A DNA stretch of 64,000 bases from an uncultured Pseudomonadales bacterium (GCA_964620965.1 CAZUHV010000003.1:98093-162092), one strand, 5' to 3'; positions 16,758-38,913 are shown, numbered from the stretch's first letter. Notes: generated by a model not told the origin, from the sequence alone. Made by a program: numbers and translations.

Positions 16758-16760
16758 TAT

Positions 16761-17324: not shown

Positions 17325-17349
17325 TCCAAGTAGTGCCGGTCACATCTTT

Positions 17350-18018: not shown

Positions 18019-18243
18019 ATGCAACTCACAAGAACTACTATCCGTTTACAAAAGCCACTACAAATTGCTGCCAAAAAAAAGGCAGAAGAGTTAGACATTT
18101 CTTTTCAAACATTATTGACTCGAGCACTTGAAGCATATTTATCCGATGTAAGCAAAAAGAAAGCTACAGAGATTATTTTCAAAGGTAAGAACATAGGGGC
18201 AAACTTAGACAACCTTACTAGAGAAGATATATATGCTGATTGA
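18019..18243 (+). CDS. Antitoxin (VapB-like, putative ribbon-helix-helix)
   Basis: A 74-aa protein that overlaps the downstream PIN gene by 11 nt. The N-terminus TTIRLQKPLQIAAKKKAEELDISFQTLLTRALEAYL is RHH-like. Confidence 0.5.
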   Translation: MQLTRTTIRLQKPLQIAAKKKAEELDISFQTLLTRALEAYLSDVSKKKATEIIFKGKNIGANLDNLTREDIYAD

Positions 18244-18714: not shown

Positions 18715-21700
18715 CTAGTTCACTATCCACCAGTTGAATGAAACATCTGCTGATGCAGGAGAGTCAAATCCAACTACAAATTCGCCTTCATTTTCTGGGG
18801 TATTTGGATCGTCTTGCGCTTGAGATTTAACAAAGAGAACTTTATTATCTGTGCTGCCAACTGCAGTGACATAGACTAAGCTGTCGTTTGTAACAATTCC
18901 AGATTTAATGGTAACTTTGTCTGAACCAGCTTTTATTGTAGCTTTACCAGAGGTTTTGTTAGTTGAAAGTTCGTTTGTATCGCTAGATCCCAAGTTCTGA
19001 CTTTCAAGTCCGATTCCGCCAGCTATATCAACTTTTCCAGCAAATGCTGCATTTCCTTCTGCTGAGAAGGTGGCAACTGGGGTTCCAACTTCGTTGATGA
19101 TTTCGAATCTAGATTTTTTGACCTCGTTGGTTTGAGTATCAACACCAGCAACTTGAACCTGGAGTGGGTTACCAAACTCTGTAGGTTTGAGCATGTCTGT
19201 GAGGAGTGTGCCTGCGATTTTTGCATTACCTGTAACATCAAGGTCTCCATTGACAGTGACTTTGCCTGAATCATCAATTGTAACTATGCCCGCGAGTAAT
19301 TCGATAGAACCTTGACCTTCTGGTTGAATTTTAAGAATTTGGTTCGCAGGATCTGCGGTTGTGTATCTGATTAATCCATCAGCTATCAACATGCTGTCAC
19401 CAACAAAAAGGTCATTACCAACTGCTAGTGAATCAGACACGTATGCACCACCATTTACCTTGAGGTATTTCTCTACAAACAGGGCAGATCCAGTAAGAAC
19501 AACATCGTCGCTTGTCATGCTGAGTTCTGCAAAGCTTAAGTCCAAATCTGCGCTAGAGCTTGCATTGAACTCTGTTTTGTTAACTGTTGCATAGAGATCT
19601 TCCATAAATGAAGCAGAGGAGGTGCTTTCGTTAGTACCAAGTAAAATATCGAGTAAACCAGGTTGTTGTAGGGTAGTTGCAACTTTATTCTCAAAATCAT
19701 AGATAGAGTTCGCATACAAAGTGCCAGATACAGTAGCGGTAACAAGGTCTGCGGTTGTAGCTCTAACGCTTTCTAGTTGGGCAATTCCTGCCTCTAGGGC
19801 AGAAATACGTGCGGATGCAGCTGTAACTTCATTAGCAAGCAAGGTTCCAACCTGAGCAGTTCCAGAAATGGTAGCATTTTGAGCAACGAGGGTTCCAGAG
19901 ATGCTTACTTCATTTGCAAGTAAGTTACCGAGTTTTGAGTTTTGAGCAGTTAATGTTCCAGAAACCGTTGCATCTCCTTGAACCAGAAGTGAACCAAGAG
20001 TAGAAGAGCCAGATGCAGCTATAGAGTTAGTAATTACATCTTTAGAATTAAGGTTTCCAAGTAAGCTGAGGTTTCCGTCTTTGTTTATTTCTGCAGTTGT
20101 TTTTGTTCCATCGCTAAATTTGACTTTACCAGAGTTTGTAGCAGTGATGACAGTGTCGTTTCCGACTGGAGAAACAAGGGTAGAGTTATTTGAAGCGGTC
20201 TGGTTTCCAACAACACTTTGAATATAGCTGACTAGTGATTGACCGTTAATTGTAATAGTTTCTGCAGAGAGATTCTTGATTGTTGCAGTATTTTCAACGA
20301 TTAACTCTTTGGTGTTAGTAAGGCCTGCTTGGATTATGCCCAATATAGCTGAACGGGCACCAATAATTGTACTCAAAACATTATTATTTTTAGATTCTGT
20401 AACAATGTAATCAGATCCTGATTGAGTAATAACTATGCCTCCTATAGAGTCAAACATGATGTTGTTATTTTCCAAATTTTTCAGTTTGATTTGGTGCTTT
20501 TGTATTTCTGAAAGTAGTAGTGGCGCCAAGAATTGGTAAGAAACACCAGCAGGACTGCCATCTGTATCATAAAATGCCATTTCTGGGATTGTTTGAGCAA
20601 CCTCTTCAGCAATAAGTCCGTATTGGATTGTTCCCAAGCTATCCTTATATTCAAACTTTACGGGTCTTAAGTCATAAAGTTTCTTTGAAGTATTTTCTTG
20701 TATATTTTCTACGTTTGTTTTGTTTTTGATAGATGAAGATAAGTATCCTAGCTGACCATCAGAATTGACATAAACATTACGTGTACTTGAGGTAGTATTG
20801 TAAACTCCTGGCGCATATATGATTCCAGTACTACCTATTGTTAAACGTGTAGTGTTATTTGTCCTGAAATTCATAACATTGTTAAATGGGTTGTTTAAAT
20901 AAACCTGGTCAGTGTCCATCCATAATACTGAGTAATCAGTTCCACCTCTTTCTATTTTATATGCGTTAGTGCTTGAACTGGTATTGTCTTCAATTACAAT
21001 ACCTCCTCCGACAACGTCAAGAACTTGTGAAGCGGTTGTTGTTCCAATTCCAAGATTACCTGCAATATCAACATTTGTTCCATTTCCTCTCAAAAAATAG
21101 TTTACAGAAGTATTACTGTCTGCAAGGATAGAGTATCCACCTTCTTGAGTAATACCAAAGTAATCTGTACTACTATCATCACGAAGTACTATTCCATAGT
21201 TGGAAGTATTAGACTTAAGTTCAATATAACCATTCAAGTGAATCCAATCGTCTGAATTTTCGCCCATCGTTGCATCATCGTCAATGTACCCAGCGGCACC
21301 AATTTGAATATTTCCGCTTACTACTAATTTTTGTCCTGGACTCGTTGACCCAATACCCACATTTCCATCAGAATCTATAACCATTCTTTCTGTTAGAGAC
21401 CCTGCAGTGCTTTGTGTATAGAAACGGAGTATTCCAGGAACAATAGCTCCGCTAATTGTTCCTTCTGTATCAAAAGTAATTCTGCCGGCTTCAGACCAAG
21501 TGCTAGAAGCGCTTCTTCCATAGGCACGAAGCAAGAGAATGTCATCTCCAGTAGTTACAACAGATGGTGATGCTGCTGAACCTCTTGATTTTCTAATATT
21601 AAAGTGAACTCCAGTAGAGTTTGCAGTTGATTGTTGTGCATACATATCATTTGCGCTTGCATCGAATTGGAAGCCTCCAGTACTATCGCCTGCAATGATA

Positions 21701-24700
21701 TCTCCAGTTGCTGCAGTAACAATTGCAACAGGTGCATCTCCAACTGTTAGTGCTCCGTTTACATGAAGTCTTGTTTGTGGAGTAGAGGTAGATAAACCAA
21801 TATTTCCACCTGCTTCAACAAACATCACGTTTCCTGAGACTCCTTCTTCAATTAAGCTGAATCCGTTGAGTGCATTCCAGTCGTTTGCCCAACTCCAGTC
21901 GTGTCCATCTACATCTGTGTTTTCCATTCTGATTCTGCTATCTCCTGGATCAGCAATATGCAAGATTGTTCCTGGAGCAGTGGTTCCAATACCGATATTC
22001 CCACTAACAATGGACATATAGTAAGAGTTAGATATATATGAATGACCAAAGTTGATTGTATTTCCAATTCCACCTCCCGTCATAATATTTAGTCCGCCCC
22101 CATAGCTTGAGATTAGATTTGTTCCTGCAAAGGAAGAAGAGTTTGCATCAGAGTAACTTGATAAAGTTAGACTATTATCTCCACCTGCTACAAGGAGTGT
22201 AGTTGCTGCAGATGTTCCACTTGCTGTGTTATTTATTGCAACGGAAGTTAGAGCATCTTGATTTTTTTCTACAACCAAAAGCCTGCTTGGAGCAGTGGTT
22301 CCAATACCAACATTTGCTCCATCTATAACCAAGTAGTCATCTCCATATAAACCAATTCTTGCATCATAGTCTGTTCCGCCAATATCATTTTGGAAGTCCA
22401 GGTGAGGAATTCCACCGCCGCTTGTAAGTTCAATTGCATAGTTTCCACTTAAATCTTCTCCAGTTCGGAATCCAGGTCCGTTTGGAGTTGAATCCCTTCC
22501 AACACCTACAACATGTAGTTTTGAATCAGAGGTAGTGGTTCCAATACCAATGTTCCCCTCATGGTACATATTTCCACCTTCAGAGTAGACAGAGTAGTTA
22601 GAGGAGCTTCCAACATTCATATTGGCGATTTGTATACCTTTAAGGTGGTTGATTGTTCCACCACTAACACCTGGTGTGTACACTCTAACTAGTGCTAAGT
22701 TATCAACTATTGCTCCAGTGTAGACATCTGCGGCAGAGGTAAGGCCTTCTGAGTATGAAGTTGTGCCTCCATTTCCCCAGAACTTAAGTTGTGAAGAGTT
22801 TCCTTGTAATCCAGACAAAGTTCCAGAGGTGTGTGTTGTGCCAGTGACAGTTCTATATCCATATGCAGTCATTGCTCCAGAAACAGATTGAGTTATTTCA
22901 TTCATAAAGCCAATATAATCACCTGAACCAGAAGAGTTTGTTTTTACAACATGTAACTGAGAGGTTGGGCTTGTAGTTCCAATACCTAAATTCCCTGTAT
23001 CAGTTAGTCTCATTAGTTCGGTACTGGCATTATGAAGGAACTTAAAAGCATGGTTTGAACCATCATTATCAGCATCCATAGTAAAGTTAATATCTTGGTC
23101 ACTTTTAATTTCAGCTACTCCTGTGTCTCCGCTAAAGTACAGTTCTACACCTGCAGAGTTTGCTATGTCTAATTTCGCAGCTGGAGTAATAGAACCAATA
23201 CCGACATTACCACCATCAAGAACAGTGAAGACTTCTGTAGATCCATCAAATAAGTTAAGGATATCTTCGGTTGAGCTATTGCGAACGTCAAGTCTTGCAC
23301 CTGGAGTTGTGGTTCCAATACCTGCATTACTTGCAAGTACCATAGAAGTTGTGCCACCAGCAGGATCAACATAATAGGAACTATTGCTCACATCAGAAAA
23401 TCTTTCTGCGTATAAATATCCAGTATTTGCCATTCTAAATCTAGTTACACCTGCAGAGTTACTTGCTGTAAGAATATCCTGATCCCCAAGTTCTTTGAGT
23501 AAGACCAATGCTTTTCCTGTTACTGCAGTATTAACTTCAAAGCCATGTGTTGGGGTTGCAGTTCCGATACCAACTTTACCAATATTATCAATTACTAGTC
23601 TTTCAGTTCCAGCAGTATCAAATCTGATGTAGTCTTCGTCTGCAGACTCCTCAACCTGAATTTTTGTATCTCCGTCTGCATCAGAAATACCAGAAGCTAT
23701 TATGTCTCCTGAAGAATAAATATTTGTGAACCTTCTTGAAGCAGAGCCAAGAGAATAGGTATCGTCTGCTGTTGGGCCAATGTTTCCGGCAACTTCGAGT
23801 AAGAAACTTGTTGGGGCAGTGGTTCCAATACCGACGTTTCCTGTAGAAGTAATCACAAACTCTGCGGTTGCATCTGCGTCTGGATCAAAGCCGAAGTAAT
23901 TATCTGTGGTGTTGTAAGTAAGGATTCCTTCATCACCTGAATTACCAATATGGATACTTGCTCCTTTTACATACAAGGAATCCCATCTTACGGAATCTGA
24001 ACCTAAACTACTTGCTCCGTCTGAAGCAGGAAGCAGATCATCAGATAGAATGAAATTAGAAGAATCCCATCTAAGATATTCTGTGCCTGCATTGCCAAAG
24101 TACAAATAGTTTGCAAGCTCTATTTCTCCAGCAACGTCGAGTTTTTGACCTGGAGTCGTGGTGCCGATACCAATATTGCCTGCATCTGTAATTACCATAT
24201 CTGGAGAAACTAAACTTCCTCCTCCCGTGAAACGGAGACTCCCGTCATTGTACTGCCCAAGTCCTGCAGGGTTTGGTGTGCCATCATTATCACTTTGGAA
24301 GAATAGTGAAGCATCATTAGCAGAGCCAACGTTTGTATCTGTTGTTATGAATAATTGACTTGCACTGCTTGTTCTATGAATTTGTAATGCTGAAAGTGTT
24401 GTGTTGGTGCCAATACCGATATTAGCATTAAGACCATCAAGGAAGAACGCGTTAGCATTGGTATCAGATTCAATTCTAAAATCTGAGTCATTGCCTTGTT
24501 CGTTGAATACAGCAGAACCGTTAGAGTAGAGTTGGATATCAGCAGAGGCTGTAGAAGTGCCACCAATAGCCAAATCAACTACAGAAGCATATTCGTTTTT
24601 AGGATGGAGTACATTAAGAGTATTAGCCCAAAGAGTTGCACTTGTTGCAATAGAAGCAGGATCAGTCCAGGTCATTGCACCACCACCAGAAGAGGTGAGG

Positions 24701-27700
24701 AGATATCCAGAAGTGCCAGCATTACCAGCCACTCTAATTGCGTCTGTCAAATTAAATTCCCCGACTAGGTCAAGTGCATATCCTGGAGCTGTAGAACCAA
24801 TTCCGACGTTGCCATTTGCATCAATGGTTACTTTTTCGGTTCCAGCGGTTACTATACCAATAGTATCTATCGCAGGTCTGTACAATCCAGTGTTAGTGTC
24901 ACTTGCAAATGAGAATGTTGGTCCACCAACAGTTCCATTACCTGCATAGTAGGTTCGAGCCGTTACATCGTTGTCTACTGATACATCTCCATCTTCATCA
25001 ACAGTAAATCTTGTAGAATCCGCATCTGTCCCAATTTGGAATAGTATTTGGTTTGGAGTAGGGCTATTTTGGAAAATATTTAGGTTAGCAACTGGTGTTG
25101 CGGTGCCGAGTCCAATGTTACCATCAGAACCTTGAAAGAAGAACGCGTTGGCATTTGTGTCTGATTCAATTCTAAAGTCAGAGTCATTGCCTTGTTCGTT
25201 GAATACAGCAGAACCATTAGAGTATAGTTGGATATCAGCAGAGGCAGTAGAGGTGCCACCGATAGCTAAATCAACAACAGAAGCATATTCGTTTTTAGGA
25301 TGGAAGACATTTAATGTGTTTGCCCAAAGGTTAGCTCCAGAACCTAAGGTACTTGGGTCAGTCCAGGTCATAGCACCACCAGCAGATGAAGTGAGGAGGT
25401 ATCCAGAAGTACCAGCATCACCTGCAACTCTAATTGCATCTGTGAGGTTGAATTCGCCAACTAAATCAAGAGTGTATCCTGGAGAGGAGCTACCAATACC
25501 AACATTACCACCATTTGCAGAAAGGATGACAGCATCTGTTGCAGCATCACCGATAAGTAGGTTTCCAGTATTGTTCATGATGTAGGAGTTTGTGCCGTCA
25601 TGGTATAGCTCTAAATCTTGTCCTTCACCAAGTATGATGTTTCCACCACCACTGGTTCCACCTGCTACCCCGTCGCCATCTTCATCTAAAATCCAGTCTC
25701 CAGCCTCACCCCAAATGCCATAGTTATTCGAAGAAGCTGCTGTGATAGCAGTCATATACAGACCATATAAAGTTTGGAAGGAACCACCCCCTGTATCACT
25801 AATTGTTTGTAATCTAAAACCATGTCCAACGGCTACGTTTCCTGATCCAGATAGGTACATATTTGCGTTATACGCAGTTCCATAGGTAATTGTTCCAGCT
25901 CCAGAATTAGTAAATGCTCCAGTAACAGCAGTTCCATTTGTTAAAGTTCCAGCAGTTCCTTGATAGTTGATTGATCCTTGAACACCAGAAAGACCGGAAA
26001 GTGTATTACTTGATCCACTAGGGGTTGTTGCAGAACCAGAAATAGCATTATATGCAGATGCAGCACTATCTATACCATAGACACTTACTCCCAATGCATT
26101 TTGAGTGCTACCTCCGGTATAGCTTGAGACGTATCCAATAGATGCAGCTCCTGTAGAAGAGTTACCTGCACTAGTAGTAATGTTGAGGGGAGCAGTAGGG
26201 CTAGTACTGCCGATACCTACGTTTCCTGCAAAATAGTTTTTTGTGCTACTGCCAGATTGATATACACCATAACTACTAGAAGAGTTGTTTGCAATATCAA
26301 CTGCTCTAAAGTCAGCTGCGCTTGTAAGAGTTGGGTTAATATAAACACCTCTGGTAATTGCAGTTGTTCCACCTGTTTGGTTAATAGTAGATCCAAAATA
26401 GAGACCGTTATAAGAGATATCTTTTGTTGCTGCATTTGGAGAAAATGATTGAGCAACTTTAACTCCATTAACTATGCTGCCAACCAAATTATTTGTAGGG
26501 TCGAAAGTTATTGTATTTGCTAGATCTAGGCCTCCGATATTGCTTGAGTTATTTGTAATATTTTGTGTGGTAGAAAGTTTAATGCCACTTGCATTTGAAA
26601 TAGTTCTACCAGTGTAGAGTTCTAACCCAGCAGTAGTTGTAGTAGTGAGTGCTGATGGGTACATGACAAAACCATTACTGCTTGTTCCAGGAGTATTAAA
26701 CAAGTAAGTATCTGAGGTGTCATCGTAGTATAAGGAAAGCTGTCCCCCAGAACTAACAACGTCGTTAAAAAAAGTAAATCTGTTAATACGGAATGAGTTT
26801 CCACCACTATTGCCTAGTGTACCAATACCTATATTTCCTCCGACAGAGCCTACTTGAAGTTGTGAGGTTGGGTTTGTTGTTCCAATTCCCAAGTTTCCAC
26901 CATTAAAGTATGAACTTCCATTACTATTAAGAGTAATATCTTGGTTCGAAGAGGCATCATAGATAAATAATTGTTGATCTACACCAGATCTAAACATTCT
27001 AGTTTGTCCATATTCGGAACTTAAATAAAGAATTCCATAACTGCTTGCTCCAGTTCTAGCTTCAACTTTACCTCCATAAATATCTGTTGAAAGTTGGAGC
27101 ACAGCATTTGTTGAATAGTCATTGCTTAATTCAAATTTAGAACCTGGTGTTGAAGTTCCAATACCAATATTTCCATCAGAACCCTGAAGGAAAAAGGCGT
27201 TAGCATTTGTGTCTGATTCAATTCTAAAGTCAGAGTCATTGCCTTGTTCGTTGAATACAGCAGAACCATTAGAGTATAGTTGGATATCAGCAGAGGCAGT
27301 GGATGTACCACCAATAGCTAAATCAACAACGCTTGCATATTCATTTTTAGGATGAAGGACATTAAGGGTATTAGCCCAAAGATTAAAACCAGAACCTAAA
27401 GTGCTTGGGTCAGTCCAGGTCATTGCGCCACCACCAGATGAGGTTAGTAAGTATCCAGAGGTTCCGGCGTCGTTGTTTGCATATAGTCCTGAGGTGATGT
27501 TTACTGCTCCATTAACATCAAGTTTTCTTGTAGGACTAATAGAGCCAATTCCTAGATTTCCACTAGCGTTAATCACACTCAAGGCTGTTCCTGCACTATC
27601 TTGCCACTCTTGGATATTTGCAGTACCACTTGGTCCTCCTTTGACAACTAAGCCTTTGCCTCCAGCATATGTCGCAGAGATAGTAGCAGTGTTAGCAGCA

Positions 27701-30700
27701 AGATCGCCACTAACATCAAGCCTTGCACCTGGAGTTGTGGTTCCAATACCTGCATTACCTGCAAGAGTCATAGAAGTTGTGCTTCCAGCAGGGTCTACAT
27801 AGTAAGAATCATTACTAATATCGGAGAATCTTTCTGCATATACGTATCCAGTATTTGCTATTCTCATTCTAGTAGTGCCGCTTGAGCTTGCTGTGAAAAT
27901 ATCTTGGTTACCTGTTTGGTTTAGGATTGCTAAAGCTTTACCTGTTGCTGCACCATCAATATTGAGTAGTCCGATTGGGGTTGCAGAACCAATCCCAACA
28001 TTTCCTAGACCATTAACAATAAACTCTGTTGTTGGAGTACCATCATAGTCGCTTATAAGTTCTAGTAAGCTCCAGTTAGCGGTTGGTGATTGAGCAGATC
28101 TTCCAAGTATTACAGGACCTGTAGGGGTGGCACTTCCATTTGTTCTAGAGAAGGCTCCAACAGCAGCACCAGGTATGTTGGTAACACTTGAATTAACACT
28201 CATTGCACCTACAGAACCAGATTGTAATTCTGTAGCAGTGAACTCTGATCTTCCACGTCCCATCATTACAAACATTGTGCTTTCGTCGCCATCAATAAAA
28301 CGAAATGCAACATGATTGGATCCCAGTGATGTTCCTGTATCTTGTGTTTTTGCTTGGAATGTTATTCTTCCTGCTCCGTTACCATTATCGGCCTGGCTAC
28401 CAACTAGTTTTAGAGCTCCATTATATGTGCTTCCTCCATTAACTATACCAGTTATTAGTAATCCACCATTACTAGAATTATTGATCCCGATTCTTCCAAA
28501 AGTATCGGCTGGAAGTACTGTTGTAACACTATGTGTAATACTTGAACTAGAAAGATCAAGACCTGGAGTTGTACTACTTTGTAGCTCTAGTTTGTTTGTT
28601 GGGTTAGTAGTGCCAATCCCAACATTTCCACCAAAATAAGCTTGGCCATTAGATTGTAAGTGTATATCTGCAGAAGCAGTAGAAGTACCACCTAAAACTA
28701 AGTCAACTATGCTAGCATACTCATCTTTAGGATGTAGTACATTAAGAGTATTTTCCCACCAGCCAGCCCCAGTAATATCATCTGGATCAGTCCAGGTGTT
28801 GGCACCACCACCAGAAGAGGTTAGGAAGTATCCAGTTGTCCCAGCGTCTCCAGCTATTCTGATTGCGTCTGTTAGATTGAGCTCACCGGTAATTTGGGTG
28901 TTGCCAACAACGTCAAGTTTATATCCAGGAGAAGCAGATCCTATCCCCACATTGCCACTGCTGTTAATTGCAAAAATATCACCGTTACTTGCTGCACTAC
29001 TTCTGATTTGGAAGTAATCAGCTGTTGGTGTTGCACCACCTTTGAAGTACGCAACAGGAGAGGTAACAGAAGCAGCATTTTGAACGACTTTAAAAGAAGC
29101 GTCAACATAGTTGAGAGAGATCCCAACACCTCTAGAAGTTCCTACAGTACCACCGATAAGAGAAATATCTCCAGCAGACATACCAGTGCCAACGTTATAT
29201 CCAAAGTCCATTCTGGTAGCATATCCACCAGAAGTAATAGAGGAATTAGTAGAGTTAGTAGCCATGTAGATAGCAGCGGTACCAGAAGGACCAGCACTGA
29301 TATTTAGTCTACCGGCCCCAGTGTAAGAAGAACCAATACCAACATTACCATCATTTGCGATAATAAATTGAGTAGTACCAGAAGCAGAGGCAGTAAAGAT
29401 AGCTTGATTTCCAGTTTGATTTAGAATAGTGAGAGCTTTCCCTGTTGCTGCGCCGTTTACATTTAAAAGACCAATAGGAGCGCTACTACCAATTCCAACA
29501 TTGCCTCCAAAGTATGATTGTGTAGTTCCAGCAGTATAGATTGCATAGTTGTTTGTACCTTGAGTCAAAGCTTCTACGTATAAACCGTATAGGTTTGGAA
29601 TAGTTCCGCTTGTTATTGTGTTTCTAGCTTGGAAAAATGCGGTACTACCTGTGACTGATCCTAAAGCTCCGTGTAGTCTAGACTGAATACCAATAAGTTC
29701 TCCAGTAACTGTGGAAGATGCGTTATTTGTCACTATGCTTCTGCTACCATATTCATTACCAATTGAATATGCACCAGAGATATTTGTATAAACATATGAT
29801 CCATCTATTGTTGATGTAGTGCTTGCATCTGCATACACAAATGCAAGTATACCGGCGGCTCCGCCACTTCCTGTTTTATGTAAATCTATGTTGTAACCAT
29901 AAACAGAACTAGAATTATTTATTGTTCTTGAACCTGCTAAGATTGATCTGCTTGCTTGTCCTGGATCTGCGAAAAGGTAGATCCCATTTGATGGAATTAT
30001 TCCAAGTAAACCAGAGGAATCTACTCCAAATGTTGTTTCTTTAGATCCTGTAGGCTGAGTTATTTTGAATTGTGGACTTGTTGTTGAACTTACCTCTAAT
30101 TTTGCACTAGGAGCAGTAGAACCAATTCCGACATTGCCACCAAAGTAAGCTTGACCATTCGATTGTAAGTGGATATCTGCAGAGGCAGTGGATGTGCCAC
30201 CAATAATAAGATCAACTACAGAAGCATACTCGTCGGTAGGATGATACACATTTAAAGTATTTGTCCAAAGAGTAGAAGCAACTAATGAAGCAGGGTCAGT
30301 CCAGGTCATAGCACCACCGCCGGATGAAGTGAGGAGGTAGCCGGAAGTGCCAGCGTCGCCAGAAGAACGAATAGCATCTGTTAGATTGAGTTCACCAGTG
30401 ATTTGGGTGTTGCCAACAACGTCAAGTTTATATCCTGGAGAAGAAGATCCTATCCCCACATTGCCACTGCTGTTAATTGCAAAAATATCACCGTTACTTG
30501 CTGCACTACTTCTGATTTGGAAGTAATCAGCTGTTGGTGTTGCACCACCTTTGAAGTACGCAACAGGAGAGGTAACAGAAGCAGCATTTTGAACGACTTT
30601 AAAAGAAGCGTCAACATAGTTGAGAGAGATCCCAACACCTCTAGAAGTTCCTACAGTACCACCGATAAGAGAAATATCTCCAGCAGACATACCAGTGCCA

Positions 30701-33700
30701 ACGTTATATCCAAAGTCCATTCTGGTAGCATATCCACCAGAAGTAATAGAGGAATTAGTAGAGTTAGTAGCCATGTAGATAGCAGCGGTACCAGAAGGAC
30801 CAGCACTGATATTTAGTCTACCGGCCCCAGTGTAAGAAGAACCAATACCAACATTACCATCATTTGCGATAATAAATTGAGTAGTACCAGAAGCAGAGGC
30901 AGTAAAGATAGCTTGATTTCCAGTTTGATTTAGAATAGTGAGAGCTTTCCCTGTTGCTGCGCCGTTTACATTTAAAAGACCAATAGGAGCGCTACTACCA
31001 ATTCCAACATTGCCTCCAAAGTATGATTGTGTAGTTCCAGCAGTATAGATTGCATAGTTGTTTGTACCTTGAGTCAAAGCTTCTACGTATAAACCGTATA
31101 GGTTTGGAATAGTTCCGCTTGTTATTGTGTTTCTAGCTTGGAAAAATGCGGTACTACCTGTGACTGATCCTAAAGCTCCGTGTAGTCTAGACTGAATACC
31201 AATAAGTTCTCCAGTAACTGTGGAAGATGCGTTATTTGTCACTATGCTTCTGCTACCATATTCATTACCAATTGAATATGCACCAGAGATATTTGTATAA
31301 ACATATGATCCATCTATTGTTGATGTAGTGCTTGCATCTGCATACACAAATGCAAGTATACCGGCGGCTCCGCCACTTCCTGTTTTATGTAAATCTATGT
31401 TGTAACCATAAACAGAACTAGAATTATTTATTGTTCTTGAACCTGCTAAGATTGATCTGCTTGCTTGTCCTGGATCTGCGAAAAGGTAGATCCCATTTGA
31501 TGGAATTATTCCAAGTAAACCAGAGGAATCTACTCCAAATGTTGTTTCTTTAGATCCTGTAGGCTGAGTTATTTTGAATTGTGGACTTGTTGTTGAACTT
31601 ACCTCTAATTTTGCACTAGGAGCAGTAGAACCAATTCCGACATTGCCACCAAAGTAAGCTTGACCATTCGATTGTAAGTGGATATCTGCAGAGGCAGTGG
31701 ATGTGCCACCAATAATAAGATCAACTACAGAAGCATACTCGTCGGTAGGATGATACACATTTAAAGTATTTGTCCAAAGAGTAGAAGCAACTAATGAAGC
31801 AGGGTCAGTCCAGGTCATAGCACCACCGCCGGATGAAGTGAGGAGGTAGCCGGAAGTGCCAGCGTCGCCAGAAGAACGAATAGCATCTGTTAGATTGAGT
31901 TCACCAGTGATTTGGGTGTTGCCAACAACGTCAAGTTTATATCCTGGAGAAGAAGATCCTATCCCCACATTGCCACTGCTGTTAATTGCAAAAATATCTC
32001 CTGTAGCTGAACCATTTGTAGCAATTTGCAAGTAGTCAAGTGTTGGGCTAGATTCATGCTCAAATCTTACTAGTGCAATGTCGGAGTTGCCAGTGAAACC
32101 AACTACCCCAAAGCTGGCAGCTGTTGTAGGTGCAGCAGGACCAACAAAAGCTCCATTTGCGCCATTTCCTCCCGCAGTGAGTTGCATTACTAGTTCGGAA
32201 GTAGAAACATAAAAATATTGTGATGAACCAGATCTATACATTAGAGAGTCGTCGGAGTTGCCTGTGCCTGTTCCAATAGAAGCCTCTGTAGTTCCTGCTT
32301 GTTGAAATAGGATTCTAGTTTCTTGACCATGAGTTTGGTGGTTCATTTTAATGTACTGGTTAGCATCGCTGTAGAGTTCTAGTAATGCAGTTGCATTGCT
32401 AGTGCCTATACCAACATTTCCTGAAGTATTCACAGAAGATAAAACAGTCCCAGCACTATTTTGCCATTCTTGAATATTAGCAGTGCCACTTGGGCCTCCT
32501 TTTGCTATGAGTGCAGTGCCACCTGCATAGGTAGCGGAGAAGGTTGCTCCAGGTGCATGTAAGTAACCTTCTAGGTCTAAATCTGACTGAACAATAACTT
32601 TACCCGTTCCATCGGGAGCGAGAGTAATGTTGCCATTTGAACCCGAAGATGTCTGTAAAACTAAAGCTTGAGCTTCAATAGTGAAAGATCCTGAGGTTGC
32701 TTTAAGAGAAGGCGAAACTTCCCCTAACAAGACTTGTCCACCGGCATCCATTGTGAGAATTGTGTTTGTGGTTGCCGCTCCTGTGGCAGAAACAGGGTAT
32801 CCTTGAACGGTTTCAGAGTTGAGAGCATAGGCGACGGTTTTGATTGATTGTCTTGGGTCAAGAGTTTCAGATTCAATCTCAACTTCTAACCAGACGTTTG
32901 AGTTCTCAGTAAAGACATTTTCTGTGATTTCAGATCCACAGTCATCTCCTAGACCAACATTAAAAATACCATCTTGATCTGGAGTGACGCTACAAGTTCC
33001 AGAACTCCAGAGTTGAGTTCCTCCAGAACTGTTGTCATACAGTCTAAAAGCCATATCAGTTGAGGTAGTTATTGGGTTTTGTGCGGCATCTGTCAATCTA
33101 CCTTGAAAGGAAAGCTCTCGATTTGGTCGTACAGGGGTACTTGGATACGCAAATGGAGTAGGTGCTTGCTTGATAAATTGTTGATAGCCCAATACACCAA
33201 GTCCAATTGCAAACACAACCATCATTACCAGGTTTAAATATGGCAAAAATTGCTTATTTCTTTTGGTATTTATTTGGTTTGCGAAGTCTTTTAAGCTAGA
33301 TCTAATGCCTGCATATATTTTTCGAGTTTCCTCACTATTTGTAAGTTCTTTCTCTGATTTTGTTGTATTACCTGATTTTTTTTCTAACTCTTCTGCTGCA
33401 AAGTCTGGAACTGGGAGTTTCCAACCATGCTTTACTTGGTTTTGGTTTGTTTGGTGAGCATGAACAAGGGTATTTGGCTTGAGTTTTAATTCAAATTTTT
33501 GTGGAGTAGAGGTTGTAAATTTTGCATTTGGGATTATTGAGTGAGTAGATACAGTTTCTCTCTGAGAGGAAACTGTGGTTGTTTGATTACCAACTCGGCT
33601 ATGATCTTGAGCAATAACTTCTTGAGTTTCAAAGAGCTGTCCTTGAAGTAAGTGGATCCATGAAGAGACTCTCTCAATGAGACTTCTGTCTTGAGCCCAG

Positions 33701-34674
33701 AGAGAAAATTGAGTAATACTTGTCACTTTTCTTTTGATACTACTTGGTTTGAGTCCGGTTTTTCTCTGTAAGACAACAAAATTCTCTATATTTTCTTGAG
33801 TAATAATCTTATCCAGATCAGGTTTGCCTGTGGACTCGAAGAATTGGTTGAGGTCAGATTTGTAGTTTTTAATTGTTGCTTGTGAATGTCCATCGATTTC
33901 AAGACTAATCAAGAAGTTCTCAAGTTCTGTTTGAGCATTTTTTTGGTGTGATGCAGAGTTTTGGGTAGAGACAGAACTTGTTTTGTGTAGATAATTTGGT
34001 TTTCCTGTGACTAGGGATTCTAAGTCTGAAATCCAGAATGAAGCATCTTGAACAATTTTTTCAGTTTCTGCCCAGAGGGCAAACTGAGATATACTCGAGA
34101 GTTTGCGTTTTATCGTAGACAACTTGAGTCCTGAATCGAGTTGATTATGAACAAAATTTCTTAAATTCTCTGGTTCAAAGAGGTTTGAAATTTGTTTTGT
34201 TTGAGAAAGACTAACAAACTGTTGAATATCACTGCGGTAGTTTTTGATGGTTGAGTCGGAGCGATTATCAGCTTTGATTGAAGATAAAAACTCATGAAGG
34301 TAAATATCAATTTCGAGTGGAGTGTATTCTGCAACAAACTTTTTTAAGAGGACTGCCTGCTTATGAGCGACATTTTCGGCAGTTAAGAACTTTTCTAGGT
34401 CATCAATCGACCAATGTTCTGCCCATTTTGGATCATCAATCTTGCGCTTATTGATAAATACAATAAATTTTTCTGTTGTCAACAAAGCCAAATCTTTGGA
34501 GACATGGTGACTTTCCAAAAATGTGGAAAAGACAGAGAGGAGGCTGGTGATATATCTGTTTTGGGCAGTCATCTTTTTTTGTTGCTTTAGTACCTTTTTT
34601 CTCAGACGTATTAGACGTCTTAGATAGCGCATATTTAAGTTTAGATAACTCGAGTTCACTTGGCAATACCTCAA
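18715..34674 (-). CDS. Giant (5319 aa) single-pass surface protein. The N-terminal ~480-aa cytoplasmic part has two phage-integrase SAM-like (core-binding) domains; then a TM; then a huge repetitive tail-fibre-like ectodomain with an internal Peptidase-S74-type intramolecular chaperone domain and a ~640-aa coiled/β tail
   Basis: An uninterrupted 15.96-kb ORF. The N-terminus has S.STIKNYRSDIQQFVSL...GLKLSTIKRKLSSISQFALWA and a second copy ATIKNYKSDLNQFFES...GLKPSSIKRKVTSITQFSLWA, matching the NTxxxYRxDL..F...G.sxxTxxRxLSxxxxFxxW pattern of XerD-type N-terminal domains. The TM is FLPYLNLVMMVVFAIGLGVLGY. The ectodomain has dozens of G(N)VGIG(T/S)xxP..KLDVxG and TSGYLLTSSGGGAMTWTDP modules. The S74-like segment SSIKNKTNVENIQENTSKKLYDLRPVKFEYKDSLGTIQYGLIAEEVAQTIPEMAFYDTDGSPAGVSYQFLAPLLLSEIQKHQIKLKNLE lies at about 20470-20740. 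Confidence 0.8.
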   Translation of the reverse strand: MRYCQVNSSYLNLNMRYLRRLIRLRKKVLKQQKKMTAQNRYITSLLSVFSTFLESHHVSKDLALLTTEKFIVFINKRKIDDPKWAEHWSIDDLEKFLTAENVAHKQAVLLKKFVAEYTPLEIDIYLHEFLSSIKADNRSDSTIKNYRSDIQQFVSLSQTKQISNLFEPENLRNFVHNQLDSGLKLSTIKRKLSSISQFALWAETEKIVQDASFWISDLESLVTGKPNYLHKTSSVSTQNSASHQKNAQTELENFLISLEIDGHSQATIKNYKSDLNQFFESTGKPDLDKIITQENIENFVVLQRKTGLKPSSIKRKVTSITQFSLWAQDRSLIERVSSWIHLLQGQLFETQEVIAQDHSRVGNQTTTVSSQRETVSTHSIIPNAKFTTSTPQKFELKLKPNTLVHAHQTNQNQVKHGWKLPVPDFAAEELEKKSGNTTKSEKELTNSEETRKIYAGIRSSLKDFANQINTKRNKQFLPYLNLVMMVVFAIGLGVLGYQQFIKQAPTPFAYPSTPVRPNRELSFQGRLTDAAQNPITTSTDMAFRLYDNSSGGTQLWSSGTCSVTPDQDGIFNVGLGDDCGSEITENVFTENSNVWLEVEIESETLDPRQSIKTVAYALNSETVQGYPVSATGAATTNTILTMDAGGQVLLGEVSPSLKATSGSFTIEAQALVLQTSSGSNGNITLAPDGTGKVIVQSDLDLEGYLHAPGATFSATYAGGTALIAKGGPSGTANIQEWQNSAGTVLSSVNTSGNVGIGTSNATALLELYSDANQYIKMNHQTHGQETRILFQQAGTTEASIGTGTGNSDDSLMYRSGSSQYFYVSTSELVMQLTAGGNGANGAFVGPAAPTTAASFGVVGFTGNSDIALVRFEHESSPTLDYLQIATNGSATGDIFAINSSGNVGIGSSSPGYKLDVVGNTQITGELNLTDAIRSSGDAGTSGYLLTSSGGGAMTWTDPASLVASTLWTNTLNVYHPTDEYASVVDLIIGGTSTASADIHLQSNGQAYFGGNVGIGSTAPSAKLEVSSTTSPQFKITQPTGSKETTFGVDSSGLLGIIPSNGIYLFADPGQASRSILAGSRTINNSSSVYGYNIDLHKTGSGGAAGILAFVYADASTTSTIDGSYVYTNISGAYSIGNEYGSRSIVTNNASSTVTGELIGIQSRLHGALGSVTGSTAFFQARNTITSGTIPNLYGLYVEALTQGTNNYAIYTAGTTQSYFGGNVGIGSSAPIGLLNVNGAATGKALTILNQTGNQAIFTASASGTTQFIIANDGNVGIGSSYTGAGRLNISAGPSGTAAIYMATNSTNSSITSGGYATRMDFGYNVGTGMSAGDISLIGGTVGTSRGVGISLNYVDASFKVVQNAASVTSPVAYFKGGATPTADYFQIRSSAASNGDIFAINSSGNVGIGSSSPGYKLDVVGNTQITGELNLTDAIRSSGDAGTSGYLLTSSGGGAMTWTDPASLVASTLWTNTLNVYHPTDEYASVVDLIIGGTSTASADIHLQSNGQAYFGGNVGIGSTAPSAKLEVSSTTSPQFKITQPTGSKETTFGVDSSGLLGIIPSNGIYLFADPGQASRSILAGSRTINNSSSVYGYNIDLHKTGSGGAAGILAFVYADASTTSTIDGSYVYTNISGAYSIGNEYGSRSIVTNNASSTVTGELIGIQSRLHGALGSVTGSTAFFQARNTITSGTIPNLYGLYVEALTQGTNNYAIYTAGTTQSYFGGNVGIGSSAPIGLLNVNGAATGKALTILNQTGNQAIFTASASGTTQFIIANDGNVGIGSSYTGAGRLNISAGPSGTAAIYMATNSTNSSITSGGYATRMDFGYNVGTGMSAGDISLIGGTVGTSRGVGISLNYVDASFKVVQNAASVTSPVAYFKGGATPTADYFQIRSSAASNGDIFAINSSGNVGIGSASPGYKLDVVGNTQITGELNLTDAIRIAGDAGTTGYFLTSSGGGANTWTDPDDITGAGWWENTLNVLHPKDEYASIVDLVLGGTSTASADIHLQSNGQAYFGGNVGIGTTNPTNKLELQSSTTPGLDLSSSSITHSVTTVLPADTFGRIGINNSSNGGLLITGIVNGGSTYNGALKLVGSQADNGNGAGRITFQAKTQDTGTSLGSNHVAFRFIDGDESTMFVMMGRGRSEFTATELQSGSVGAMSVNSSVTNIPGAAVGAFSRTNGSATPTGPVILGRSAQSPTANWSLLELISDYDGTPTTEFIVNGLGNVGIGSATPIGLLNIDGAATGKALAILNQTGNQDIFTASSSGTTRMRIANTGYVYAERFSDISNDSYYVDPAGSTTSMTLAGNAGIGTTTPGARLDVSGDLAANTATISATYAGGKGLVVKGGPSGTANIQEWQDSAGTALSVINASGNLGIGSISPTRKLDVNGAVNITSGLYANNDAGTSGYLLTSSGGGAMTWTDPSTLGSGFNLWANTLNVLHPKNEYASVVDLAIGGTSTASADIQLYSNGSAVFNEQGNDSDFRIESDTNANAFFLQGSDGNIGIGTSTPGSKFELSNDYSTNAVLQLSTDIYGGKVEARTGASSYGILYLSSEYGQTRMFRSGVDQQLFIYDASSNQDITLNSNGSSYFNGGNLGIGTTNPTSQLQVGSVGGNIGIGTLGNSGGNSFRINRFTFFNDVVSSGGQLSLYYDDTSDTYLFNTPGTSSNGFVMYPSALTTTTTAGLELYTGRTISNASGIKLSTTQNITNNSSNIGGLDLANTITFDPTNNLVGSIVNGVKVAQSFSPNAATKDISYNGLYFGSTINQTGGTTAITRGVYINPTLTSAADFRAVDIANNSSSSYGVYQSGSSTKNYFAGNVGIGSTSPTAPLNITTSAGNSSTGAASIGYVSSYTGGSTQNALGVSVYGIDSAASAYNAISGSATTPSGSSNTLSGLSGVQGSINYQGTAGTLTNGTAVTGAFTNSGAGTITYGTAYNANMYLSGSGNVAVGHGFRLQTISDTGGGSFQTLYGLYMTAITAASSNNYGIWGEAGDWILDEDGDGVAGGTSGGGNIILGEGQDLELYHDGTNSYIMNNTGNLLIGDAATDAVILSANGGNVGIGSSSPGYTLDLVGEFNLTDAIRVAGDAGTSGYLLTSSAGGAMTWTDPSTLGSGANLWANTLNVFHPKNEYASVVDLAIGGTSTASADIQLYSNGSAVFNEQGNDSDFRIESDTNANAFFFQGSDGNIGLGTATPVANLNIFQNSPTPNQILFQIGTDADSTRFTVDEDGDVSVDNDVTARTYYAGNGTVGGPTFSFASDTNTGLYRPAIDTIGIVTAGTEKVTIDANGNVGIGSTAPGYALDLVGEFNLTDAIRVAGNAGTSGYLLTSSGGGAMTWTDPASIATSATLWANTLNVLHPKNEYASVVDLAIGGTSTASADIQLYSNGSAVFNEQGNDSDFRIESDTNANAFFLDGLNANIGIGTNTTLSALQIHRTSSASQLFITTDTNVGSANDASLFFQSDNDGTPNPAGLGQYNDGSLRFTGGGSLVSPDMVITDAGNIGIGTTTPGQKLDVAGEIELANYLYFGNAGTEYLRWDSSNFILSDDLLPASDGASSLGSDSVRWDSLYVKGASIHIGNSGDEGILTYNTTDNYFGFDPDADATAEFVITSTGNVGIGTTAPTSFLLEVAGNIGPTADDTYSLGSASRRFTNIYSSGDIIASGISDADGDTKIQVEESADEDYIRFDTAGTERLVIDNIGKVGIGTATPTHGFEVNTAVTGKALVLLKELGDQDILTASNSAGVTRFRMANTGYLYAERFSDVSNSSYYVDPAGGTTSMVLASNAGIGTTTPGARLDVRNSSTEDILNLFDGSTEVFTVLDGGNVGIGSITPAAKLDIANSAGVELYFSGDTGVAEIKSDQDINFTMDADNDGSNHAFKFLHNASTELMRLTDTGNLGIGTTSPTSQLHVVKTNSSGSGDYIGFMNEITQSVSGAMTAYGYRTVTGTTHTSGTLSGLQGNSSQLKFWGNGGTTSYSEGLTSAADVYTGAIVDNLALVRVYTPGVSGGTINHLKGIQIANMNVGSSSNYSVYSEGGNMYHEGNIGIGTTTSDSKLHVVGVGRDSTPNGPGFRTGEDLSGNYAIELTSGGGIPHLDFQNDIGGTDYDARIGLYGDDYLVIDGANVGIGTTAPSRLLVVEKNQDALTSVAINNTASGTSAATTLLVAGGDNSLTLSSYSDANSSSFAGTNLISSYGGGLNIMTGGGIGNTINFGHSYISNSYYMSIVSGNIGIGTTAPGTILHIADPGDSRIRMENTDVDGHDWSWANDWNALNGFSLIEEGVSGNVMFVEAGGNIGLSTSTPQTRLHVNGALTVGDAPVAIVTAATGDIIAGDSTGGFQFDASANDMYAQQSTANSTGVHFNIRKSRGSAASPSVVTTGDDILLLRAYGRSASSTWSEAGRITFDTEGTISGAIVPGILRFYTQSTAGSLTERMVIDSDGNVGIGSTSPGQKLVVSGNIQIGAAGYIDDDATMGENSDDWIHLNGYIELKSNTSNYGIVLRDDSSTDYFGITQEGGYSILADSNTSVNYFLRGNGTNVDIAGNLGIGTTTASQVLDVVGGGIVIEDNTSSSTNAYKIERGGTDYSVLWMDTDQVYLNNPFNNVMNFRTNNTTRLTIGSTGIIYAPGVYNTTSSTRNVYVNSDGQLGYLSSSIKNKTNVENIQENTSKKLYDLRPVKFEYKDSLGTIQYGLIAEEVAQTIPEMAFYDTDGSPAGVSYQFLAPLLLSEIQKHQIKLKNLENNNIMFDSIGGIVITQSGSDYIVTESKNNNVLSTIIGARSAILGIIQAGLTNTKELIVENTATIKNLSAETITINGQSLVSYIQSVVGNQTASNNSTLVSPVGNDTVITATNSGKVKFSDGTKTTAEINKDGNLSLLGNLNSKDVITNSIAASGSSTLGSLLVQGDATVSGTLTAQNSKLGNLLANEVSISGTLVAQNATISGTAQVGTLLANEVTAASARISALEAGIAQLESVRATTADLVTATVSGTLYANSIYDFENKVATTLQQPGLLDILLGTNESTSSASFMEDLYATVNKTEFNASSSADLDLSFAELSMTSDDVVLTGSALFVEKYLKVNGGAYVSDSLAVGNDLFVGDSMLIADGLIRYTTADPANQILKIQPEGQGSIELLAGIVTIDDSGKVTVNGDLDVTGNAKIAGTLLTDMLKPTEFGNPLQVQVAGVDTQTNEVKKSRFEIINEVGTPVATFSAEGNAAFAGKVDIAGGIGLESQNLGSSDTNELSTNKTSGKATIKAGSDKVTIKSGIVTNDSLVYVTAVGSTDNKVLFVKSQAQDDPNTPENEGEFVVGFDSPASADVSFNWWIVN
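20470..20740 (-). other. Peptidase S74-like (tail-fibre/endosialidase intramolecular chaperone) domain, internal to the giant protein
   Basis: The Ser...Lys spacing (SSIKNK), the ...LRPVxFxYK...GLIAEEVxxxxPExx...G...VxYxxLxxLLxxxIQ pattern, and a coiled-coil end all match the autoproteolytic C-terminal chaperone domain family. Confidence 0.55.
28880..31990. repeat. Near-perfect tandem duplication (2 x 1509 bp) inside the giant gene, flanked by more diverged copies of the same module
   Basis: DNA at 28,9xx re-occurs at +1509 (30,4xx) with near-identical bases, and a third copy at 31,9xx begins to diverge. The antisense track ORFs 28894..29307 and 30403..30816 have identical 137-aa translations apart from 2 aa. 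At protein level the ~503-aa block ...DIFAINSSGNVGIGSSSPGYKLDVVGNTQITGELNLTDAIRSSGDAGTSGYLLTSSGGGAMTWTDPASLVASTLW... occurs twice verbatim. Confidence 0.85.
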
Positions 34675-36795: not shown

Positions 36796-38913
36796 TTAGG
36801 AGAGGTTGCCAAAGAGTTCTTTATAGATATCGCCAATGTTTCTCATGATAGCATTGAGTGTTTTTGGCTTTTCTGTAACATCAACTTCTTCAAAACTAAG
36901 CTGAGAGCCTTTTCGTTCCCAAATAAGGTTTGTTTTGGTAACTTGAACCTGGTATTTGTTGGGATCAAGGAAGGCTTGATGGTAGCCATCCTTGTTAGTA
37001 TTCACAATGGCAACAAGCTCACCCTTTGTTGGGTCACTGATACGTACAATTGCATTCTCAACAGGCTCTTTGTTCTCTGTGATCACAATCCCAGATAAGG
37101 TTGGCTTTTTAAGTGAGTATATGAGTCTTTTAATGAGCATTACAAAATAAATGCTCAACAGCAGGAAGTTAATCCAAGTTGGATAGAAAATTGTTATTAG
37201 TACAGAAATAATGAACAAAGGCCAGAATAAATCCAGTGATCTCAGTTTTCTCAGCATAGATCTTAGGGTCTTTTTTATCTGGTATGTTTCTTTTGTTTCG
37301 GTTCTTCTGTCCATAGGAATCAAGAATAACTGTTGGCGTTTTGTTGAGGTAACTTCGAACTCTTCGCCTTTATAGAAATCTTGGACACCTAAATAGTTTG
37401 GTCTTTCCTTACTTGTTGGAAAGTTATAATCCTGATGAGTTACGTTGATAACATATTTCCCCAAGGGGAGTTGCACTCCTTGATAGACTCCATGAACGTC
37501 AGTAACAACGGTTTCGATAATCTTTTCGGTAACTGTTTGGCTAGTTGAGGTAATAGTGAGTAAAGCAAACGAGACTGGTTCATTGGTTTGGGAATCAAAT
37601 ACCATCCCTTGAGGTTCTTTTGGTGGAATAAGCCCAAGAGCTTGCAGTATTTTAAAGATAAGGTCTAATGAAAGCTGTTGCCCAAGTTGTAAAAGAAGTG
37701 TTAAAAAGCTAATGGCTGGAACTGCTGCACTTGCTACCAGTACTCCAATAGGGGCAACAGCATCAGTAGTTTTTTGTATTGCTTGCCTGATTTCTTGAGG
37801 AAGAGCAGAAATAATTTCAACAATTGGAGAAGGAACAGTTTTTATTATGTCTTTTTTGATAATTTCAACGATTTCCTTTGGAGGAAGCACTGGTATTTTT
37901 ATTATTGGGCTTGGAGGCGGTGTTCCAGGTGGGGTTGGTGGTATTATTGGGGTTGGAAAAGGGGTAATTTCTGGGGTTACACCTGGAGATGGGGTTGGGG
38001 TAGTACTTGGAGTAGGTGTTGGGATAAGGGTTGGAGTCGGAGTAGGAGTTGGTGGAATAATAATATACTCTTGTATGATCAAAATTTTTAGGTCTGTGAT
38101 GACACTTACATTGCCTGCTTGATCTGTTATGACGAAATTAAGCGTAATTACTTCGTCTCTAGGCAGAATTCCAAGCTGAAAACTCCAATTTCCACCACTA
38201 TCTATAACAAAATTGATGATTTGGTTACTTTCTCCAGGAATTTGCACAGTTACTTGGACAGTTGCATTTGCTTCACCTGTCCCAATGAACTCTGGCTCAT
38301 TGTCTTCTAGTTCTATTGGGTCATCTGGAACAGAGTTTATATCGGAGGCAGAAATATTCGTAGGGAGAGGTCCAATACTAGTAATAACAAAGCTTGGCGC
38401 TTGAGTATCTATAGTGAAATCCCAGATTACAGAACTATTTGAGTTTCCAGCTGCATCATAGACTTTTACTTGCCAGGTGTGAGCCCCATTAGAAATTGTT
38501 GCTACAGGTGTAAGCGTATACTGTCCTGAGCCACTATTATATGTCAGGGTGTATGATCCCGTAGTAGTAGCAGTAGTTGGAATAGATCCATGTAGCAGAT
38601 TTCCATCTAAGTAAAGCTCATAATAACTGACCCCAACATTGTCAGTAGATTCTTGCCAAACAAAACTTGGGGTGGCGTCGTTAATGAGTGCTTCATCAAC
38701 TGGAGAGATTAAAATAGGTGCAGAAGGAGGAACAATATCTGGAACAGTTGCTGTAACAGTATTGTCTCTGTTTTTTGGATTGGTGCTTCCGCTTTCTCCA
38801 GGACCTATACCTCCTGCTTGTGCGTATACATTTACAGAAAAAAACTGATATATGGAAACAAAAACTAAAAATAGAGCAAACTTTAAAAAATTATGAGTAA
38901 AAAAATTTCTCAT
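36796..38913 (-). CDS. Large secreted/membrane surface protein: signal peptide, Ig-like β domains, PT-rich linker, TM segments, two transthyretin/carboxypeptidase-regulatory-like β-sandwich domains
   Basis: The signal peptide ends ...VNVYAQA. The linker is PTPTPTPTLIPTPTPSTTPTPSPGVTPEITPFPTPIIPPTPPGTPPPSP. Hydrophobic helices lie after the linker. GMVFDSQTNEPVSFALLTITS and GIVITENKEPVENAIVRISD are CarbopepD_reg-like openings. Confidence 0.5.
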   Translation of the reverse strand: MRNFFTHNFLKFALFLVFVSIYQFFSVNVYAQAGGIGPGESGSTNPKNRDNTVTATVPDIVPPSAPILISPVDEALINDATPSFVWQESTDNVGVSYYELYLDGNLLHGSIPTTATTTGSYTLTYNSGSGQYTLTPVATISNGAHTWQVKVYDAAGNSNSSVIWDFTIDTQAPSFVITSIGPLPTNISASDINSVPDDPIELEDNEPEFIGTGEANATVQVTVQIPGESNQIINFVIDSGGNWSFQLGILPRDEVITLNFVITDQAGNVSVITDLKILIIQEYIIIPPTPTPTPTLIPTPTPSTTPTPSPGVTPEITPFPTPIIPPTPPGTPPPSPIIKIPVLPPKEIVEIIKKDIIKTVPSPIVEIISALPQEIRQAIQKTTDAVAPIGVLVASAAVPAISFLTLLLQLGQQLSLDLIFKILQALGLIPPKEPQGMVFDSQTNEPVSFALLTITSTSQTVTEKIIETVVTDVHGVYQGVQLPLGKYVINVTHQDYNFPTSKERPNYLGVQDFYKGEEFEVTSTKRQQLFLIPMDRRTETKETYQIKKTLRSMLRKLRSLDLFWPLFIISVLITIFYPTWINFLLLSIYFVMLIKRLIYSLKKPTLSGIVITENKEPVENAIVRISDPTKGELVAIVNTNKDGYHQAFLDPNKYQVQVTKTNLIWERKGSQLSFEEVDVTEKPKTLNAIMRNIGDIYKELFGNLS

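Follow-up and report, generated by a model that had tools for sequence, protein, structure and literature searches.

An exact in-frame tandem duplication in a giant MAT-like fiber gene of a putative Patescibacterium

Related fiber proteins and the architecture of the giant protein

MAT (mosaic adhesive trimer) fibers, among them Bd2133 and Bd3182 of Bdellovibrio bacteriovorus, are beta-helical adhesins of trimeric build that carry S74 or alternative tips and a beta-rich, conserved domain about 130 amino acids (aa) long directly after the signal peptide (PMC10769870). We analyzed a 64-kb window of contig CAZUHV010000003.1 (positions 98093 to 162092 of the contig; all coordinates below are counted from the first letter of the window) in which a giant gene, located at 18715..34572 on the minus strand, encodes a predicted membrane-anchored fiber protein of 5,285 aa that appears MAT-like rather than being a proven MAT member. 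Two adjacent 1,509-bp units within this gene are identical at every position, and the evidence presented here makes it likely that the repetition is real and that a segment of 503 codons was duplicated in tandem and in frame, very recently, by unequal exchange between recurring modules.

The exact 5,285-aa product beginning at the ATG at 34572 is on record from an NCBI contig of 297,365 bp, and an ortholog, P0121 (MCB9813502.1), starts at the equivalent methionine. The mechanical open reading frame (ORF) reaches a TTG at 34674 (18715..34674, minus strand, the numbering that our amino acid positions follow); its first 34 codons (34573-34674) are therefore probably untranslated. One N-terminal transmembrane (TM) helix (FLPYLNLVMMVVFAIGLGVLGYQQF; 33175..33249, minus strand), preceded by K/R-rich residues, is predicted from the translation, and its likely N-in topology would place two integrase-type N-terminal SAM-like domains (33685..34293, minus strand; Pfam Phage_int_SAM_1, E = 8.7e-16, two stretches) on the cytoplasmic side. 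The helix is followed by a domain of about 125 aa that is conserved in 35 homologs. A stretch of about 4,000 aa is punctuated by 23 GN[VIL]G[IL]G...P...L motifs, and the Peptidase_S74 domain (PF13884, the intramolecular chaperone of endosialidase) lies at aa 4647-4698 (20581..20736, minus strand), where Pfam scores of 33.9 and 35.3 bits compare with a gathering cutoff of 22. The catalytic motif of this domain, canonically SDxxxK, reads SSIKNK (20722-20736, minus strand, aa 4647-4652), with Asp replaced by Ser, and SDIRLK in the ortholog; with the Ser and the Lys retained, S74 cleavage may still occur. In S74 proteins this Ser/Lys dyad lies at the cleavage site, and the chaperone is set free by autoproteolysis once the trimer has folded.

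Several features liken the giant protein to the MAT family. The 503-aa unit matched the crystal chain of Bdellovibrio Bd2133 (8ond_A) in three segments with an E value of 2.4e-7, a moderate match that takes in the GN(V/L)G(I/L)G..AP..KL.V motif and the 'ATGK.L..NQTGN' sub-module. The literal MAT capping-loop motif, V-G-G/N-pi-x-x-P-x-x-x-L, had 0 matches in the giant protein, the 23 motifs mentioned above being a related form. The C-terminal Peptidase_S74 chaperone/protease domain also occurs in the MAT S74 subgroup, and mosaic tips that differ between close relatives are found in both. The bacterium that carries the gene presumably lives on other bacteria, as cultivated members of the Patescibacteria would lead one to expect, and would resemble the Bdellovibrio carriers of MAT in this respect as well.

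There are also differences from MAT proteins. The giant protein is about 5 times longer (5,285 aa versus about 1,000 aa), and its catalytic motif is of the form SSxxxK instead of SDxxxK. It has no cleavable signal peptide; its place is taken by about 440 aa, predicted to be cytoplasmic, that contain the two SAM-like domains and are followed by the TM helix (33175-34572, minus strand; aa 35-500). The same N-terminal region was seen in about 20 of the 146 family representatives (1.4 to 5.5 kaa); judged by these homologs, the layout is a conserved, uncharacterized architecture, with a DNA-binding-type domain at the predicted inner end of a surface fiber. About 620 residues follow the S74 domain, which is unusual also in itself, and they include a weak match to the Hia Trp-ring under the Pfam cutoff. 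The MAT N-terminal domain of about 130 aa and the post-TM domain of about 125 aa can be likened by position only. Trimerization, along the whole fiber, and surface display are properties of MAT proteins; for the giant protein, a trimeric, surface-exposed fiber would be the expectation from the MAT likeness.

Phage tail fibers and tailspikes that end in an intramolecular chaperone, such as the K1F endosialidase and T5 pb1, offer a second comparison, in that the giant protein likewise combines an S74 domain scoring over the Pfam gathering threshold with a fibrous, repetitive shaft. Unlike phage fibers, it is the product of a cellular genome, where its gene sits with housekeeping genes (Rho, Obg, leucyl-tRNA synthetase [LeuRS], and ATP synthase). 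It is predicted to be membrane anchored, does not have S74 at its extreme C terminus, and gave no PHROGs match, whether the query was the unit, the C terminus, or the region after the TM helix.

In the streptococcal alpha C and Rib proteins, staphylococcal Bap, Aap, and SasG, and enterococcal Esp, the number of repeats changes by intragenic recombination; these arrays consist of many short units (about 80 to 130 aa) with a defined Ig-like fold, and strain-to-strain variation in copy number has been demonstrated. The giant gene resembles them in carrying identical in-frame DNA repeats in a gene for a predicted surface protein, with unequal exchange or slippage as the probable cause, and differs from them in having two copies of a long composite unit of 503 aa. 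A last comparison is with the giant membrane or surface proteins of CPR bacteria such as Vampirococcus lugosii, which are described with WD40, PKD, integrin, and fibronectin-type domains and for which a role in host recognition and attachment has been proposed (PMC8080830). The likeness, drawn from their description, is that of a very large protein of predicted membrane location in an ultra-small bacterium, in our case encoded beside type IV pilin-like genes; unlike the V. lugosii proteins, the giant protein is of the S74/MAT-like type.

Extent and anatomy of the exact repeat

From 28936 to 31998 (3,063 bp, equal to 2 x 1509 + 45), the sequence is perfectly periodic with a period of 1,509 bp. 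Base-by-base comparison at an offset of 1509 gave 0 mismatches at positions 28936..30489 (1,554 aligned positions), k-mer analysis of the whole window returned a maximal exact repeat of 1,554 nt (1509 + 45) at 28936/30445, and blastn aligned unit to unit with 1509/1509 identity. The second-longest exact repeat in the window measures 98 nt, and chance cannot be the source of the 1,509-bp repeat. The period equals 503 codons, the reading frame is kept, and the minus-strand ORF runs through without interruption; aa 893-1395 and aa 1396-1898 are identical protein segments, and the coding region holds 2.03 exact in-frame copies. Tandem Repeats Finder reported nothing relevant at the duplication because the longest period that it searched was 500.

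These results bear out, more strongly than it was claimed, an initial annotation of this DNA that had described an exact 1509-bp tandem duplication inside the giant gene. The interval given at the time, 28880-31990, was right in location and about 50 bp off at its left edge, as mismatches at 28882, 28888, 28891, 28927, and 28935 show. Two antisense ORFs on the plus strand, one of 137 aa at 28894..29307 and its twin at 30403..30816, had been called identical; both exist, and they are near-identical, since 2 nt (28927 and 28935) differ just beyond the exact region. We rejected these ORFs as genes: they mirror the coding sequence that was duplicated and are a by-product of the duplication, no sign of a gene.

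In the coding direction, the order of segments is X / A1-B1 / A2-B2 / A3 / D, all on the minus strand. Copy 1 of the unit (30490..31998, aa 893-1395) consists of module A1, a unique core B, and a C sub-module, and copy 2 (28981..30489, aa 1396-1898) follows it with 0 mismatches. Module A3 (28597..28980, aa 1899-2026) is a partial, old third copy whose first 45 nt are exact and whose remainder is about 77% identical to A1 and A2. Module A spans about 125 aa, from GDIFAINSSGNVGIG via TWTDP to GNVGIG, and recurs over about 330 to 380 nt. It is present six times in the gene, dispersed with irregular spacing (starts at aa 893, 1396, 1899, 2368, 3056, and 3284), the diverged distal copies being A4 (27253..27573, aa 2368-2474), A5 (25201..25509, aa 3056-3158), and A6 (24505..24825, aa 3284-3390).

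The 45-nt stretch that encodes GDIFAINSSGNVGIG is identical in A1 (31954..31998), A2 (30445..30489), and A3 (28936..28980). The copy in A1 repeats the one in A3 exactly at an offset of 3018, the three copies together form the putative site of exchange, and the copy in A2 lies at the novel junction of the B1 end with A2 that the duplication would have made. Divergence begins right beyond the 45-mer, at 31999 on the X side, where similarity collapses, and at 28935 on the A3 side; A2 bases 30436 and 30444 differ from their A3 equivalents 28927 and 28935. Weak similarity persists between the end of X and the end of B (DYLQIATNGSATG versus DYFQIRSSAASNG). Chunked protein queries found no copy of the 600-nt B core (aa 1021-1220) in the gene beyond the two exact ones. 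Outside the gene, a query with the B part retrieved only a 53%-identical fragment from genome contigs and nothing from metagenome contigs (JGI). One sub-module of 55 aa (aa 1221-1275) is found again at aa 2224 and aa 3699.

The surroundings of the two units are therefore less regular than the initial annotation had suggested. Its third flanking copy is confined to 28606-28980, about 25% of the unit (the first ~380 nt), and is identical to the unit at 77% over 331 nt by blastn, or 77.5% over a 453-nt codon alignment; the value of about 90% that had been given is reached only in a window that overlaps the exact part. The larger array of diverged copies was overstated, as only module A recurs, six times and irregularly spaced. 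Segments of about 190 bp, also described at the time, are real and 88.5 to 90.4% identical, their positions in register being 24445/25141/27193. Separately, an exact match of 98 nt joins 25151-25248 with 27203-27300 in the A5 and A4 regions, which are otherwise about 75% identical. This patch, which looks like the product of gene conversion, shows that modules recombine in other parts of the gene as well.

Age, mechanism, and copy number of the duplication

The two units have 0/1,509 differences, synonymous sites included, against a synonymous divergence (dS) from A3 of about 0.7 (A2 versus A3 in the codon alignment, dS of about 0.72 and nonsynonymous divergence, dN, of about 0.17), and in flanking DNA the window and related strains are 2 to 3% apart. 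The event, or the last homogenization of the units, is therefore far younger than the divergence of the strains, and the duplication was rightly called recent when it was first noted. Selection was rejected as the keeper of this identity, since synonymous sites are identical too. Insertion of a mobile element was rejected as well, there being no transposase and in-frame coding sequence throughout, as was the template/variable repeat pair of a diversity-generating retroelement, for which the size is wrong and A-biased mismatches are absent.

The anatomy also supports the earlier proposal of unequal recombination. When two direct repeats of h nt that lie P apart undergo a single unequal exchange, they leave behind a perfectly periodic stretch of length 2P + h that carries h at each end and once more in between; here the stretch is 2P + 45 with a 45-mer identical in three A copies. 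The ancestral order in the coding direction would have been X - A - B - A' - D, in which A and A' were old, diverged copies (about 77% identical) of the ~125-aa module that still had 45 exact nucleotides in common. An unequal exchange inside these 45 nt, pairing A' of one copy with A of the other, would give X - A - B - A - B - A' - D, either by a RecA-type crossover between sister chromosomes or by replication slippage or template switching. The product would be a fiber protein longer by 503 residues (about 10%), with one more A module and four more GNVGIG-type motifs.

A different history would produce the same identity if two old, diverged full units had recently been homogenized by a conversion tract. 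Conversion-like patches between dispersed modules do exist (the 98 nt exact amid about 75% identity), the 12 A modules of the ortholog are nearly identical to one another and point to strong homogenization in the family, and the remaining similarity between the ends of X and B could be read in the same way. Such concerted evolution needs, however, a tract no shorter than 1,509 nt whose ends coincide with the boundaries of the unit, and the sharp footprint of 2P + 45 is simply what a single unequal exchange would be expected to leave. Elsewhere in the gene, moreover, the B core has no diverged relative, and a de novo duplication is therefore simpler than the homogenization of old copies. We regard concerted evolution of old units as quite improbable, and a duplication by unequal exchange as the likely explanation.

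Four points weigh against this explanation or narrow what it can claim. Crossover, slippage, and gene conversion of the full unit cannot be distinguished from one sequence. Structurally, the basis is weak: an AlphaFold2 monomer of the 503-aa unit (36-row alignment) had a mean predicted local distance difference test score (pLDDT) of 47.9 and a predicted template modeling score (pTM) of 0.26. The match to Bd2133 was lost when the C-terminal 195 aa of the unit served as the query, and in the PDB sequence search neither this 195-aa sub-query nor the post-TM region (aa 500-892) had a match. The other two points concern copy number. None of 10 Logan short-read contigs found via neighboring genes spans 28.9-32.0 kb, where there may be one, two, or more copies; and with all other exact repeats at 98 nt or less, two copies plus the overlap are the minimal path through the loop of a de Bruijn graph.

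A short-read assembler with k above 98 would consequently be ambiguous only at the 1,509-bp loop, and since the assembled sequence corresponds to the minimal traversal of that loop, the true copy number could be higher, a caution that the initial annotation had reasonably raised. On this account, the mechanism is the same and the count differs, at least three identical units having been collapsed to two, so that the assembled number is a lower bound. No path shorter than the 2P + 45 arrangement would use all edges of the loop, the public Logan contigs, whether from the same strain or from near ones, all break within the gene (at window positions ~21016-21028, 24808, 31969, and 32557), and one family member has 7.3 exact tandem copies; if the source contig came from long reads, on the other hand, two copies are probably correct. 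A collapsed array of three or more units seems to us possible but unlikely. The copy number of the assembly at the duplication is untrustworthy without long reads.

In the opposite direction, the genome could hold a single unit (X-A-B-A'-D), with a spurious loop created by strain heterogeneity or chimeric reads, for example by a coexisting variant whose A' had in part been converted to A. The population is heterogeneous, with strains at 96 to 99.9% identity co-occurring in public samples and the gene mosaic between them. Flanks at 99.9 to 100% identity to those of the window are present in SRR10803493, SRR32005136, SRR10807626, and SRR10580905. A contig from an independent sample, SRR10580905 (99.94% identical), ends at 31969, exactly 30 nt into the repeat, which confirms the boundary, since a k=31 graph breaks at true repeat boundaries. 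This end cannot separate one copy from two, because A3 shares the 45-mer and the triple identity alone would branch the graph in a one-copy allele. Against an artifact, assemblers normally collapse repeats instead of expanding them, the loop requires k-mers that link B to A-specific sequence past the 45 nt, and homologs carry like exact tandem duplications, one of them in a 5.9-Mb contig of long-read style. An artifact thus appears highly improbable, and a real duplication in at least two copies remains our preferred reading.

Relatives, gene neighborhood, and meaning for the fiber family

The initial annotation had also inferred ongoing expansion and contraction with length variation of the fiber. 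Relatives of the gene support this only indirectly, through the modules of the ortholog, repeats across the family, the homolog on the 5.9-Mb contig, and insertions, deletions, and a replaced cassette in other parts of the gene in a strain at about 97% identity; at the duplication itself, such variation may occur. The ortholog P0121, a protein of 5,466 aa encoded on a 1.08-Mb contig, is 61% identical and agrees at its N and C termini. It has 12 TWTDP (A) modules, compared with 6 here, and numerous internal repeats that are exact over 100 aa or more, one of them of 342 aa. Of the 146 family representatives, 34 (23%) contain internal repeats that are exact over at least 50 aa, 16 over at least 100 aa, and 5 over at least 200 aa; the 7.3 exact tandem copies found in one representative, with a unit of 272 aa, cannot be an artifact of the minimal loop. 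In the homolog on the 5.9-Mb contig, which the format of its name suggests to come from a long-read assembly, 831 nt are perfectly periodic at the DNA level with a period of 384 nt. A search with the unit found no near-identical protein; in the collection searched, a C-terminal fragment of 212 aa stands for the cluster to which the giant protein belongs, so that the unit region is invisible there.

In the ~97% strain, SRR11577119, a comparison of window positions 20335-21028 and 21993-22971 with contig L004 (12103-13066) revealed that 40 aa are inserted near aa 3907, that about 93 aa are deleted near aa 4170-4262, and that aa ~4550-4770, the entire S74 domain among them, have given way to an unrelated segment of about 300 aa for which Pfam has no match. 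Short-read contigs of the same strain as the window stop at 21016-21028, which is the edge of this variable S74 cassette.

The giant gene lies among cellular genes, its flanks encoding RadA, a VirD4-like ATPase, Rho, an M23 peptidase, Obg, type IV pilin-like proteins, a PIN protein, LeuRS, and ATP synthase subunits. Relatives of the LeuRS bear Patescibacteria, Woesebacteria, Pacebacteria, and Microgenomates names, and one cluster mate of the giant protein is labeled Candidatus Saccharibacteria; judged by these names, the gene appears to belong to an ultra-small bacterium of the Patescibacteria. The genome of the ortholog (P0121 / P0303; MCB9813502.1) is labeled 'Pseudomonadales bacterium,' and its LeuRS, 68% identical to that of the window, falls among Patescibacteria sequences. 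That label is probably wrong. Scans of the window for tRNAs and Rfam families were empty.

Closer to the giant gene, it is flanked by three type IV pilin-like genes (N_methyl / T2SSG), a gene for a PIN-domain protein, and one for a 705-aa Big_13 / CarboxypepD_reg surface protein, the last followed by several ORFs with no Pfam match; together these lie at 16095-17853 (plus strand), 18233-18658 (plus strand), and 36796-38913 (minus strand). These flanks look like a cell-surface gene neighborhood. A second giant gene (53746-60114, plus strand; 2,122 aa) encodes a Peptidase_S74 domain and an H-type lectin domain and carries a copy of module A (57462-57746) at about 73% nucleotide identity to the first gene. 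Since both fiber genes have module A in common, the modules are paralogous and sequence exchange between the genes is possible; a 28-nt exact inverted match also connects them (24983 / 58836).

As a molecular event, the duplication is a textbook case of growth in a repetitive surface-protein gene. Recombination-driven repeat dynamics of this kind are an ordinary way for such genes to change length, and the finding brings little conceptual change. Its more specific value is that the exchange appears pinned to a conserved 45-nt motif, a concrete substrate for the shuffling of modules in giant MAT-like S74 fibers. Bdellovibrio MAT fibers extend by about 0.4 to 0.7 angstrom per residue (PMC10769870), and extrapolation from them suggests that one extra unit would add very roughly 20 to 35 nm to the fiber, which might also affect host binding.

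Going further, we speculate that the giant gene could be the cellular counterpart of a phage tail fiber in an episymbiotic Patescibacterium: an N-terminally anchored, S74-assisted trimeric fiber whose reach is tuned by recombination, whose distal cassettes are swapped between near-identical strains to give variation in host range, and whose cytoplasmic SAM-like domains couple it to an intracellular partner, possibly DNA. We put this forward tentatively and think it unlikely as a whole; if true, the fiber would be roughly as long as the cell is wide, and the duplication would be a snapshot of the tuning of its reach. The family of giant MAT-like S74 fibers, widespread in Patescibacteria and uncharacterized experimentally, is more interesting than the duplication itself. 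The duplication, together with the strain-level replacement of the cassette around S74, suggests that fibers of this family evolve quickly, as would be expected for structures with which episymbionts recognize their hosts.

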